A stretch of DNA of 64,000 nucleotides from Acidimicrobiales bacterium (GTDB lineage: Bacteria > Actinomycetota > Acidimicrobiia > Acidimicrobiales > Microtrichaceae), in assembly GCA_046331245.1 (NCBI GenBank), contig JAXLRH010000002.1:402587-466586 (forward strand), read 5' to 3'. Shown here piece after piece: positions 33,077 through 35,674 of the stretch. The translations under genes and the position numbers were made by a program. The notes beneath the pieces were generated by a model. That model saw only the letters and a program-made list of their open reading frames with translations, did not search any database and had not been told where the DNA came from. Within the stretch, counting starts at the first letter, position 1. The number at the start of each line of letters is the position of its first letter.

Positions 33077-33106
33077 CTATTTCCCCTACGCGCGTGAGGG
33101 AAATAG
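33077..33106. promoter_or_regulatory. AT-rich inverted repeat CTATTTCCC-N12-GGGAAATAG between flotillin stop and sufC start
   Basis: The perfect 9-bp arms are unusually AT-rich for this genome. It lies 7 nt after the flotillin stop and 10 nt before the sufC ATG. Confidence 0.4.
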
Positions 33107-33116
33107 ACTCTCGGCC

Positions 33117-33887
33117 ATGAGCGCACCCCTGTTCGAGATCTCCGGGCTCCATGTCGCGGCGGCGGCAACCCCCAACGCGCCCGAGATCCTGAAGGGCCTC
33201 GACCTCACCATCGGGGCCGGCGAGATCCACGCCATCATGGGTCCGAACGGGTCGGGCAAGTCCACGCTCGCGTCCACGCTCATGGGCAGCCCCGAGTACG
33301 TGGTCACGGCGGGCACCATCCGCTTCAAGGGCGACGACATCGCCGACTGGCCGGTCGACGAGCGTGCCAAGGCCGGCATGTTCCTCGCCTTCCAGTACCC
33401 GCAGGAGGTGGCCGGCGTCCCGGTCCGCTCGTTCCTGCGGCAGGCCATGGGCCAGCGCAAGGGCATCAGCGACATGTCCATCCTCGAGGTCCGTCTCGCG
33501 ATGATGGAGTGGATGACCAAGCTCGACATGGACCCCGCGTTCGCCGACCGCATGCTCAACGAGGGCTTCTCCGGCGGCGAGAAGAAGCGCAACGAGATCC
33601 TGCAGATGGCGATGCTGGAGCCCGAGCTCGCGATCCTCGACGAGACCGACTCCGGCCTCGACATCGACGCGCTGCGCGTCGTCGCCAACGGCGTCAACGA
33701 GGTCCGAGCGGCCCGGCCCGAGATGGGCACGCTCGTCATCACGCACTACCAGCGCCTCCTCGACGAGCTCGAGCCTGCGTACGTGCACATCCTGATCAAC
33801 GGCCGCATCGTCCAGAGCGGTGGCATGGAGCTGGCGCGCCAACTGGAGGCCGAGGGCTTCGCACCGTGGCTGGAGGCCGTGTCATGA
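33117..33887 (+). CDS. sufC: Fe-S cluster assembly ATPase SufC (copy 1)
   Basis: EIHAIMGPNGSGKSTL, FSGGEKKRNEILQ, and the HY motif. Colinear with E. coli SufC. Confidence 0.9.
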   Translation: MSAPLFEISGLHVAAAATPNAPEILKGLDLTIGAGEIHAIMGPNGSGKSTLASTLMGSPEYVVTAGTIRFKGDDIADWPVDERAKAGMFLAFQYPQEVAGVPVRSFLRQAMGQRKGISDMSILEVRLAMMEWMTKLDMDPAFADRMLNEGFSGGEKKRNEILQMAMLEPELAILDETDSGLDIDALRVVANGVNEVRAARPEMGTLVITHYQRLLDELEPAYVHILINGRIVQSGGMELARQLEAEGFAPWLEAVS

Positions 33888-35149
33888 GCGACACCGAGAC
33901 GGTCGACCCGATCGACGCGGCCACGGTGAAGGCCGACTTCCCCCTCCTCGTGAACACGAAGGCGGGCGCCGGCCACGAGCGGCCCATCGTCTACCTCGAC
34001 TCGGCGGCCACCGCGCAGAAGCCGCAGGTCGTCATCGACGCCCTCACCGACTACTACGAGACGACCAACGCCAACGTCGCACGCGGCGTGTACGAGCTCG
34101 CCGAGGCGTCCACCAACGCCATGGAGCGCGCCCGCCGCAAGGTGGCGGCGTTCATCAAGGCGCCCAGCGCGGACGAGGTGATCTTCACCAAGAACGCCAC
34201 CGAGAGCCTCAACCTCGTCGCCCACAGCTGGGGGCGTGCGAACCTCGGCGCCGGTGACGCCATCGTGCTCACCCAGCTCGAGCACCACGCGAACATCGTC
34301 CCCTGGCACATCCTCGCCGCCGATCTCGGCTTCGAGATCCGCTGGATCCCCGTCGACGACACGGGCCAGCTCGACCTGACCGACCTCGACCGGCTGCTCG
34401 ACGGCGCCAAGCTCGTCGGCCTGTCGGCCATGTCGAACGTGCTGGGCACGCTCACGCCGGTGCGCCACATCACCGACGCCGCCCACGCGGCCGGCGCCGT
34501 CGTCTCGGTCGACGCGTGTCAGTTCGTGCCCCACCTGCCCACCGACGTGGTGGCGATGGGCGCCGACTTCCTCTCGTTCTCGGCCCACAAGATGTGCGGG
34601 CCCACCGGCGTCGGCGTGCTCTGGGGCCGGGCCGAGCTGCTCGACGCGATGCCGCCGTTCCTCGGCGGCGGCGGCATGATCACGAACGTCACCCAGGAGG
34701 GGTTCACGTCCGCGGCGCTCCCCCACAAGTTCGAGGCGGGCACGCCGCCGATCGCCGAGACGGTCGGCCTCGGCGCCGCCGTCGACTACCTGTCGGCGCT
34801 CGGCATGGACGCGGTGCGCGAGCACGAGGTGCGGCTCACGTCGTACGCGCTGCGCACCCTGTCGGGCCGCTTCGGCGACAAGCTCACGATCCACGGCCCG
34901 TCGGAGCCGGCGCTCCGGGGCGGCGTCTTCTCGATGGTGCTCGACGGCGTGCACCCGCACGACCTCAGCCAGATCCTCGACGAGCACGGGGTGTGCGTCC
35001 GGGCCGGCCACCACTGCGCCAAGCCGCTCATGAAAGTTCTCGGCGTCGGCGCGACTGCGCGAGCATCGGTGTACATCTACAACGACGAGCACGACGTCGA
35101 CGCACTTGCCGACTCACTCGACGCCGCGGCGTCGTTCTTCTCGTTCTGA
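33884..35149 (+). CDS. sufS: cysteine desulfurase SufS
   Basis: ATGA overlap with sufC. PLP-lysine context FSAHKMCGPTG. Active Cys in HHCA. Confidence 0.92.
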   Translation: MSDTETVDPIDAATVKADFPLLVNTKAGAGHERPIVYLDSAATAQKPQVVIDALTDYYETTNANVARGVYELAEASTNAMERARRKVAAFIKAPSADEVIFTKNATESLNLVAHSWGRANLGAGDAIVLTQLEHHANIVPWHILAADLGFEIRWIPVDDTGQLDLTDLDRLLDGAKLVGLSAMSNVLGTLTPVRHITDAAHAAGAVVSVDACQFVPHLPTDVVAMGADFLSFSAHKMCGPTGVGVLWGRAELLDAMPPFLGGGGMITNVTQEGFTSAALPHKFEAGTPPIAETVGLGAAVDYLSALGMDAVREHEVRLTSYALRTLSGRFGDKLTIHGPSEPALRGGVFSMVLDGVHPHDLSQILDEHGVCVRAGHHCAKPLMKVLGVGATARASVYIYNDEHDVDALADSLDAAASFFSF

Positions 35150-35173
35150 ACGCATTCGAAGTAGGGAGTTCCA

Positions 35174-35674
35174 ATGGCCGGTCTCGAAGATCTGTACCGC
35201 GAGATCATCCTCGATCACTACCGCTCGCCCCGTAACCGCGGCGAGCTCGAGACCCCTCCCGCGACGCGCACCGAGGGCTTCAACCCCCTGTGTGGCGACG
35301 AGATCGTGGTGTACCTCCAGCTCGGCGCCGGCGAGGGTGACGACCGGGTCATCGAGGCCATCCGCATCGGTGGGCAGGGCTGCTCGATCAGCCAGTCGTC
35401 GGCGTCGATGATGTCGTCGGCGGTGCAGGGCAAGACCATCGGCGAGGCGCACGAGGTGATGCGTGCCTTCAAGGCCATGATGTCCATCCACGAGAGCTCG
35501 CTCGACGACAGCGCGCCCGAGGAGCCCACACCCGAGGAGATCGCCGACCTCAAGCTCGGCGATCTCGAGGCGCTGCGCGGCGTGGTGAAGTTCCCCGTCC
35601 GCATCAAGTGCGCCACCCTCTCGTGGAACACGCTCGACCAGGGCATCAAGGAAGCGGTCTCCCCCGGCGAGTAA
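35174..35674 (+). CDS. sufU: Fe-S scaffold/sulfur-transfer protein SufU (NifU-like)
   Basis: NPLCGDE...GQGCSIS...C motifs. Confidence 0.88.
   Translation: MAGLEDLYREIILDHYRSPRNRGELETPPATRTEGFNPLCGDEIVVYLQLGAGEGDDRVIEAIRIGGQGCSISQSSASMMSSAVQGKTIGEAHEVMRAFKAMMSIHESSLDDSAPEEPTPEEIADLKLGDLEALRGVVKFPVRIKCATLSWNTLDQGIKEAVSPGE

Follow-up and report, generated by a model that had tools for sequence, protein, structure and literature searches.

A palindrome shared by three separate suf units and a second SufC gene in the class Acidimicrobiia

The genes for SUF-type assembly of iron-sulfur (Fe-S) clusters that we analyzed lie in a 64,000-nt stretch of DNA, hereafter the window, from the metagenome-assembled genome of an Acidimicrobiales bacterium (GenBank assembly GCA_046331245.1, contig JAXLRH010000002.1, positions 402,587 to 466,586; G+C content ~70%). 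Instead of the canonical single co-directional suf operon, the window holds three suf units on two strands, with two genes for the ATPase SufC and a palindrome directly before the plus-strand unit, sufC2-sufS-sufU (Table 1). Within this unit the start of sufS overlaps the stop of sufC2 as ATGA, and sufU follows sufS after 24 nt; the two adjacent genes both score above their model cutoffs, which places them in the type II sulfur-mobilization system. The gene models and their coordinates bear out the separate sufC-sufS-sufU unit that a first-pass annotation of the sequence had proposed. An exact look-up of the 256-aa SufC2 product found no record in the database.

The minus strand carries, in order, sufB, an F420-dependent PPOX-class gene (itself on the plus strand), a gene for a small four-cysteine protein that we call CysSm, an EVE-domain gene, sufD, a Rieske gene, sufC1 and a SIMPL lipoprotein gene, such that three genes separate sufB from sufD. 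The first-pass annotation had correctly placed a sufC after sufD and the Rieske gene, but this cluster lies on the minus strand, and the two suf clusters therefore converge. The SufC1 product is identical to an NCBI entry, 'SufC [Acidimicrobiales bacterium]' (P0001). The Rieske protein has Rieske-type dioxygenase ferredoxin subunits as its top NCBIfam matches, all under their cutoffs, and a Rieske gene occupies the same position in the suf operons of Nonomuraea, Microbacterium and Chloroflexota.

Table 1. Features of the suf region and its surroundings in the window (positions count from the first nucleotide of the window)
Feature	Position	Strand	Model score or remark
Putative operator O-sufC2	33077-33106 (matrix window 33076-33107)		CTATTTCCC-N12-GGGAAATAG, before sufC2; 25.0 bits
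Putative operator O-sufD	47556-47587	-	AGGATTTCTCCTATCGCCGTCGGACTTATTCG, before sufD; 20.9 bits
Putative operator O-sufB	50361-50392	-	GGGGTTGTTACTATGCACGTAGGAGATATTCC, before sufB; 21.6 bits
-10 box TAGACT	33104-33109	+	ends 7 nt before the sufC2 ATG; the right arm of the palindrome makes up part of it
sufC2, Fe-S assembly ATPase, 256 aa	33117-33887 (ATG at 33117)	+	TIGR01978, 317.5 bits (cutoff 212.8)
sufS, type II cysteine desulfurase, 421 aa	33884-35149	+	TIGR01979, 531.9 bits (cutoff 475.1); Aminotran_5
sufU, sulfur-transfer protein, 166 aa	35174-35674	+	TIGR01994, 139.8 bits (cutoff 92.5)
sufC1, second SufC paralogue, 270 aa	45100-45912	-	TIGR01978, 281.8 bits (cutoff 212.8)
Rieske-type [2Fe-2S] ferredoxin	45909-46238	-	between sufD and sufC1
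sufD, 429 aa	46235-47524	-	TIGR01981, 229.1 bits (cutoff 222); SUFBD_core
EVE-domain gene	47601-48053	-	inside suf cluster; not present in related loci
CysSm, conserved four-cysteine protein, 126 aa	48067-48447	-	embedded in suf cluster
F420-dependent PPOX-class gene	48470-48853	+	inside suf cluster; not present in related loci
sufB, 465 aa	48921-50318	-	TIGR01980, 713.8 bits (cutoff 346.4)
Flotillin/SPFH gene	ends 33070	+	directly upstream of the palindrome
Block between sufU and sufC1 (9.4 kb)	35716-45032		lipoprotein, PG-binding protein, MacB-type ABC ATPase and FtsX permease, acyltransferase_3, PALP+ACT enzyme, DUF6941, SIMPL lipoprotein
GloB-like MBL-fold hydrolase gene	28969-29637	+	3.4 kb from sufC2
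52-nt GC-rich hairpins	44195-44246 and 50436-50487		near-identical; half copy near 53101
Phd/YefM antitoxin and PIN-domain toxin gene pair	22664-23385	+	
N6/N4 DNA methyltransferase gene, then 104-aa open reading frame	53146-54576	+	open reading frame without family match

This arrangement recurs throughout the class. A scan with SufC2, keeping one genome per species, yielded 80 related loci, nearly all from metagenome-assembled genomes of Acidimicrobiia and including members of the Microthrixaceae, Ilumatobacteraceae, Iamiaceae, Acidimicrobiaceae and Aquihabitans. When we mapped the suf genes by tblastn, sufC2-sufS-sufU was present in essentially all 80 loci, and in 33 of them a convergent sufC1-Rieske-sufD(-CysSm-sufB) block lay no more than 10 kb away, sometimes ~385 nt from sufU. 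These 33 genomes thus share with the window both types of SufC and the division into units on two strands.

Neither sufR nor sufT, the genes at the two ends of the canonical operon, was found. A tblastn search with the SufR of Tsukamurella gave no match at E <= 1e-3, whether against the window or against 1.2 Mb of suf neighborhoods from Acidimicrobiia. SufT, a DUF59 protein, was not found in the window by six-frame motif search, by tblastn with two actinomycete SufTs or by Pfam scans of the tested open reading frames, and neither motif search nor tblastn found a DUF59 in the Acidimicrobiia loci. The first-pass annotation was therefore right that no sufT follows sufU and no sufR lies nearby, although the canonical actinobacterial operon was a misplaced yardstick. 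Reference loci of Actinomycetes do follow the textbook order sufR-sufB-sufD-(Rieske)-sufC-sufS-sufU-sufT, but the host of our locus belongs to the Acidimicrobiia, in which the split is the rule. Across the whole class it is normal to have a separate sufC-sufS-sufU unit and a second SufC and to lack sufR and sufT, and none of this is peculiar to this genome. Our literature search found no description of two SufC genes, of a split architecture or of a suf operator in Acidimicrobiia, and a review describes suf regulation in Gram-positive bacteria without SufR as unknown (PMC8593673).

The palindrome before sufC2 is perfect and AT-rich, as first described, and it is unique in the window even at three mismatches (none expected by chance); a half-site search of the window returned nothing beyond its two arms. 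In about 64 relatives, in which the upstream gene varies, the 130 nt before sufC2 hold the same element. From their consensus, ATTTCCACTAy-N4-rTAGTGsWAAT (26-28 bp), it is apparent that the 12-nt spacer holds further, partly degenerate palindrome positions. We built a 32-nt position weight matrix from 57 distinct sequences (61 instances upstream of sufC2 in other genomes), excluding the window. With this matrix the window yields three sites and no more, one each before sufC2, sufB and sufD, and the highest score in 20 shuffles was 8.7 bits. Across 1.23 Mb of related loci it finds 94 sites of at least 14 bits, with 65 at sufC2, 12 at sufB and 12 + 4 at sufD. The 94th, the only match in the genome loci away from suf genes, falls inside an acyl-CoA dehydrogenase coding gene (locus L055) and was rejected as a chance hit; the background of non-suf sites in Acidimicrobiia DNA is ~1 per Mb. 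Actinomycete suf loci contain no match of at least 6 bits, and Chloroflexota suf loci contain none.

Given that the same box precedes all three units, the three SUF units would form a single regulon. It had been suggested that sulfur mobilization (SufS/SufU) is transcriptionally uncoupled from the scaffold genes. The units are indeed physically separate, but a shared operator before sufC2, sufD and sufB points to coordinated control rather than to uncoupling.

The palindrome begins 7 nt past the stop codon of the flotillin gene and is capable of forming a hairpin whose stem has a perfect 9-bp run. It could accordingly be read as the terminator of that gene, with no regulatory role in suf expression, and we find this scarcely credible. 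A scan of the region at 33 kb (32800-33400) for intrinsic terminators found no site, the arms are AT-rich with no U-tract behind them, and the predicted fold is unexceptional (z = -1.7). Moreover, it is the sequence of the element, and not just its structure, that is conserved before sufC2 in genomes without the flotillin gene, and further copies stand upstream of sufB and sufD. The terminator-like elements of this genome are, instead, long GC-rich hairpins with folding energies of -38 to -45 kcal/mol. These observations favor a regulatory element.

The position of the palindrome relative to sufC2 suggests how such an element could act. Its right arm contributes to a predicted -10 box, and a TANNNT hexamer stands 5-9 nt (mostly 6-7) before an in-frame start codon in 68 of 72 Acidimicrobiia loci, compared with 6% of shuffled controls; TAGACT, the hexamer in the window, is the commonest of these. 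Between the palindrome and the sufC2 ATG, no Shine-Dalgarno sequence stands at a functional distance from the start, the nearest candidate, GAGGG, ending 16 nt upstream, whereas sufS and sufU carry GGAGG/GGGAG Shine-Dalgarno sequences. The first-pass annotation had put the palindrome right at the ribosome-binding site of sufC2, which does not agree with these features: there is no such site, and what the right arm overlaps is the -10 box. We infer that sufC2 is leaderless, its transcript beginning at the ATG at 33117 or right beside it. The suf operon of Mycobacterium tuberculosis has a leaderless first transcript and a promoter with a repressor palindrome (PMC6034842, PMC8371249), and the same design is documented for the suf operons of Corynebacterium and Streptomyces (PMC11995493).

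Measured from the start codon, the center of the box falls into two classes of spacing, one at -24/-25 (25 loci, with the window among them) and the other at -38 to -42 (37 loci). In both classes the box lies within the core promoter, which favors repression by occlusion. A different possibility is that the palindrome acts as RNA, as a hairpin in the 5' untranslated region that masks the ribosome-binding site of sufC2; the right arm includes GAGGGAAA, and it was at this site that the palindrome had first been placed. We regard this as highly improbable given the lack of a functionally spaced Shine-Dalgarno sequence. In addition, the conserved hexamer 6-7 nt before the start places the start of transcription downstream of the palindrome, the box lies ~14 nt further upstream and separate from the -10 box in 37 loci, and its arms are conserved in sequence with no compensatory variation. 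The palindrome is thus best read as a probable DNA operator overlapping the core promoter of sufC2-sufS-sufU, rather than as an RNA hairpin or a terminator.

To look beyond the suf genes, we scanned metagenome contigs with the exact pattern and retained high-GC, high-scoring sites. About half of the pattern matches, which lay on low-GC contigs and had low full-matrix scores, were discarded as chance. The credible sites comprise 27 before sufC2, 4-5 before sufB, 4 at a pair of carrier genes and 1 at a DtxR-family gene. At the carrier pair (contigs L094, L117, L124 and L159), the box separates two divergent genes, one for an A-type carrier (PF01521) and the other for an Mrp/ApbC-type carrier that has a DUF59 at its N terminus (PF10609 + PF01883). 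A box-preceded Mrp protein with its own DUF59 offers a possible explanation for the absence of a stand-alone sufT. In the same four contigs, RidA-like and aldehyde dehydrogenase genes follow the carrier gene.

The remaining site, in contig L087, lies between the gene for an Fe3+-type binding protein and that for a DtxR-family regulator. As a test of this lead, we fetched contigs by protein similarity to the regulator alone (68-84% identity), and a strong box adjoined the regulator gene and/or an iron transporter in all three independent contigs. One box (40.3 bits) lies between an FTR1 iron permease gene and the regulator gene, one (27.5 bits) lies ~59 nt upstream of the regulator gene and one (35.4 bits) precedes an Fe3+ ABC operon that lies 1.2 kb away from the regulator gene. 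We reconstructed the sequence of the candidate regulator by bridging a frameshift in the assembly. It is a DtxR-family protein of three domains, and its top relative in the PDB is M. tuberculosis IdeR (1FX7, E 8e-44). In contigs L205 (4965-5659), L206 (499-780) and L208 (1036-1278), apparent frameshifts split or truncate the DtxR/IdeR-family gene beside the box.

The reading we prefer, with a probability of roughly 60%, is that the box is the promoter-occluding operator of a metal-dependent DtxR/IdeR-family repressor that co-regulates the separate SUF units, sufC2 being leaderless. On this model, a dimeric, metal-loaded repressor encoded outside the window would sit on the box and block the -35/-10 region. 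When iron becomes scarce the repressor would leave, and the SUF units, the carriers and iron uptake would be induced together. The regulon would, in relatives, also include the A-type carrier, the SufT-like Mrp/ApbC protein with its DUF59, iron-uptake genes and the DtxR/IdeR-family gene, and the control would be functionally analogous to that of Escherichia coli suf by Fur. There are precedents: Fe-S assembly genes belong to IdeR/DtxR regulons (PMC11672702), and a DtxR site has been predicted at the suf operon of Corynebacterium diphtheriae (PMC524172).

Several observations weigh against this model. The candidate regulator has Glu at both positions that provide sulfur ligands in the primary site of IdeR (M10 and C102), and its recognition helix differs. 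Since Glu at these positions is MntR-like (PMC11672702), the sensed metal is uncertain. The classical 19-bp IdeR/DtxR iron box, with the consensus TWAGGTWAGSCTWACCTWA, has no match in the window with three or fewer mismatches. No regulator gene lies inside the window, and the link between box and regulator is one of co-localization in four short metagenomic contigs without taxonomic assignment. IdeR genes are not known to be classically autoregulated, and the regulator gene could be a mere member of the regulon. Finally, where the box is centered near -40, the role of an activator is geometrically possible. Clustering of open reading frames in the 80 suf neighborhoods revealed no conserved regulator gene, the recurrent neighbors being genes for an acyl-CoA dehydrogenase, an alpha/beta hydrolase, a PCD-like protein and a PIN protein; beside the carrier/Mrp pair there was likewise none, and only the RidA and aldehyde dehydrogenase genes recur.

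An alternative reading is that the box is bound by an Fe-S-sensing regulator, SufR-like or Rrf2/IscR-like, that is encoded elsewhere, and that the DtxR-family gene and the iron transporters are simply regulon members. In cyanobacteria and in other Actinomycetota, suf is under the control of sensors dedicated to Fe-S (PMC8593673, PMC8371249), and Fe-S biogenesis dominates the regulon, with 31-32 of the ~37 credible metagenomic sites at suf genes and 4 at carriers. In addition, the half-site ATTTCCACT loosely resembles both the outer arms of the M. tuberculosis SufR site ATTTTGTCACACT-N5-TGTGAAAAT (PMC8371249) and the ATAsyyGACT half of the IscR type 1 site (PMC3899308). However, the known sites of such sensors are missing from the window. 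The SufR operator of cyanobacteria, Streptomyces and Corynebacterium, CAAC-N6-GTTG, has no match in the window, nor does the IscR (Rrf2) type 1 site ATASYYGACTRWWWYAGTCRRSTAT (consensus as in PMC3899308) with three or fewer mismatches. The M. tuberculosis SufR site, ACACT-N5-TGTGA, has one mismatch-bearing match, inside the coding region of sufB and expected by chance. The empty tblastn searches for SufR argue in the same direction, as does the box matrix, which stays below 6 bits in actinomycete suf loci, where a SufR-type site is visible instead. Given also that the DtxR family supplies the only transcription-factor gene that repeatedly adjoins the box, we consider an Fe-S sensor possible but rather unlikely, and retain the DtxR/IdeR-family repressor as the favored candidate.

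Several known systems bear comparison with this locus. The suf operon of Actinomycetes (M. tuberculosis Rv1460-66, Streptomyces, Corynebacterium) encodes the same families, SufB, SufD, Rieske, SufC, type II SufS and SufU, with the order sufD-Rieske-sufC locally unchanged, as loci of Nonomuraea, Tsukamurella and Microbacterium confirmed, and there a repressor palindrome overlaps the promoter of a leaderless first gene, as predicted for the window (PMC6034842, PMC8371249, PMC11995493). In contrast, the window has no sufR or sufT, is divided into three units on two strands, and has a second SufC, an extra four-cysteine gene and a different operator sequence. In the locus of Nonomuraea gerenzanensis (L082), the sequence CACACT-GATGT-TGTGAAAAA at ~2420-2450, directly upstream of sufR, matches the footprinted M. 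tuberculosis SufR operator and extends this type of operator to the Streptosporangiales; the record itself, an 11.85 Mb 'plasmid', is evidently a mislabeled chromosome.

The IdeR/DtxR regulons of Mycobacterium and Corynebacterium resemble the box regulon in joining iron-uptake and Fe-S assembly genes (PMC11672702, PMC524172). They differ in that their 19-bp iron box is unrelated to the 26-28 bp box, that the recognition helix and the M10/C102 ligands of the candidate regulator depart from theirs, and that suf and the Fe-S carriers appear as the core of the box regulon. In E. coli, where Fur and IscR control suf, the IscR regulon (isc, suf, erpA and nfuA) puts dispersed Fe-S units, including A-type carriers, under one regulator, as we propose for the box, and suf is induced by iron limitation (PMC8593673); the regulator family and the operator are different, the type 1 site being absent from the window. 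Finally, sufC leads the operon in Chloroflexota/Longimicrobiales (sufC-sufB-sufD-Rieske-sufS-sufU) and Firmicutes (sufCDSUB), as it does in the plus-strand unit, and these operons contain the closest relatives of SufC2 and SufU. Unlike in these operons, the scaffold genes of Acidimicrobiia sit in separate units with their own SufC.

The two SufC proteins themselves are 49% identical. Both match the solved SufC structures 2D2E and 2D3W (SufC2 to 2D2E at E 4e-75), with SufC1 more distant (222 bits to 2D2E vs 255 bits for SufC2) and evolving faster. Across 36 SufC1-type and 72 SufC2-type sequences, little or no variation is seen in the Walker A Lys, the Q-loop Gln, the SGGE signature, the Walker B Asp-Glu, the D-loop or the H-loop His, and from these motifs we predict that both paralogues are catalytically competent. 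Neither copy is a pseudogene or a different ABC ATPase, given that both exceed the TIGR01978 equivalog cutoff with intact motifs. We also built a neighbor-joining tree (200 bootstraps) that included sequences from E. coli, three Actinomycetes and six from other phyla. The SufC1-type and SufC2-type sequences are each monophyletic (100% and 98% bootstrap), and the question of a recent or divergent duplicate, raised in the first pass, is answered in favor of two genuine, anciently diverged paralogues. Both appear to predate the radiation of the sampled Acidimicrobiales. The deeper branching is weakly supported, with 47% for SufC1 with Actinomycetes and 28% for SufC1 with SufC2, and the second copy may have come from either duplication or transfer. 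SufC2 is 54-62% identical to the SufCs of Chloroflexota/Longimicrobiales and Firmicutes sufC-first operons, and SufU is 43-50% identical to the SufUs of sufC-first operons vs 34-38% to actinomycete SufU.

The first-pass annotation had proposed that each SufC is a dedicated ATPase, SufC2 for the SufS/SufU step and SufC1 for the SufBD scaffold; in a variant, the two would be redundant isozymes. The adjacency of sufC2 to sufS-sufU and of sufC1 to sufD-Rieske, kept across the class, could be taken to favor dedicated roles, yet both clades keep all catalytic motifs, and we consider the proposal improbable. No SufS/SufU system is known to require an ATPase. SufC has been described only within the SufBC2D complex (PMC8593673), and the nearest relatives of SufC2, in Chloroflexota and Longimicrobiales, head complete operons, where SufC is the scaffold ATPase. 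One operator on all units gives no evident differential regulation, and the retention of both copies in 33 genomes speaks against redundant isozymes. A mirror-tree analysis did not assign dedicated partners either, because SufD correlated equally with both SufC copies and SufB and SufD partners could not be told apart. Since all catalytic motifs are kept in both clades, it is more plausible that both SufCs serve the SufB/SufD scaffold, possibly one per partner, and this is the division of labor we favor from the sequences.

The CysSm gene could be a further part of this system. It sits between sufB and sufD in most Acidimicrobiia loci, and its product has four invariant cysteines (C7, C24, C36 and C40, in the pattern C-x16-C-x11-C-x3-C), a helix with the conserved sequence LLDEAEDIVN and a basic tail. 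The product in the window is identical to an NCBI protein of an 'Acidimicrobiales bacterium'. The protein has no Pfam or NCBIfam match, and its more than 6,100 database clusters are, without exception, annotated as 'hypothetical'. An AlphaFold2 model from a 30-sequence alignment has a mean predicted local distance difference test (pLDDT) score of 61, and in the cysteine domain, with values below 50, it is unreliable. CysSm may be an unrecognized SUF component or sensor. A more far-reaching combination would join an obligate heterodimeric motor, with SufC2 on SufB and SufC1 on SufD, to CysSm as an integral Fe-S-binding component or sensor and to a divergent IdeR-family regulator with an MntR-like Glu/Glu site and a new 26-28 bp box; we offer this whole only tentatively, as it is unlikely to hold in every part.

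Beyond the suf genes, the window differs from its relatives in what surrounds the sufC2 unit. The flotillin gene occurs in none of the 80 loci, in which the usual upstream neighbor of sufC2 is an MBL-fold gene, and the 9.4-kb block between sufU and sufC1 compares with as little as ~385 nt in relatives; from this, both the flotillin gene and the spacer are insertions in the window. The GloB-like MBL-fold hydrolase gene, the immediate upstream neighbor in relatives (L002-L011 and others), is separated from sufC2 in the window by a DUF4184 gene on the minus strand, a 137-aa open reading frame and the flotillin gene. The upstream insertion landed just outside the operator. Downstream of sufU, the first-pass annotation had listed a lipoprotein, membrane-fusion protein and ABC exporter. 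The lipoprotein, a MacB/LolD-type ABC ATPase and an FtsX/MacB permease are there, but no membrane-fusion-protein model matched, and a PG_binding_1-domain protein is found instead. The lipoprotein gene lies 41 nt 3' of sufU, with its own Shine-Dalgarno sequence and no obvious terminator in front, and for these reasons may be expressed by read-through from sufCSU.

The window also contains two near-identical 52-nt GC-rich hairpins and a half copy (core GGGGTTCGTTGTG...CACAACGAACCCC). Their predicted RNA folds have energies of -45 and -38 kcal/mol (z = -9.2 and -5.6), and the hairpins stand at the 3' ends of the transcription units on either side of the sufB...sufC1-SIMPL block. None of the 84 other loci examined has them, and for this reason they look like a genome-specific element of the repetitive extragenic palindromic or terminator-like kind. 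Rfam and tRNA scans of the window gave no matches. Elsewhere in the window lie an antitoxin-toxin gene pair and a DNA methyltransferase gene (Table 1), the latter possibly an orphan methylase or the remnant of a restriction-modification system.

The architecture and the putative operator described here are, as far as our literature search shows, new for the Acidimicrobiia and amount to a lineage-wide rewiring of a known pathway. The class abounds in soil, freshwater, marine and wastewater metagenomes, and for it our analysis supplies a precise and testable putative operator, a predicted leaderless promoter whose start codon is likely to be miscalled by automatic annotation, a regulon (three suf units, an A-type carrier, an Mrp-DUF59 protein and iron uptake) and a candidate DtxR/IdeR-family regulator. 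The SUF locus of the class stably includes two SufC paralogues and an unannotated four-cysteine protein, and the SufC pair raises the testable possibility that an asymmetric SufC1/SufC2 motor may work on the SufB/SufD scaffold.

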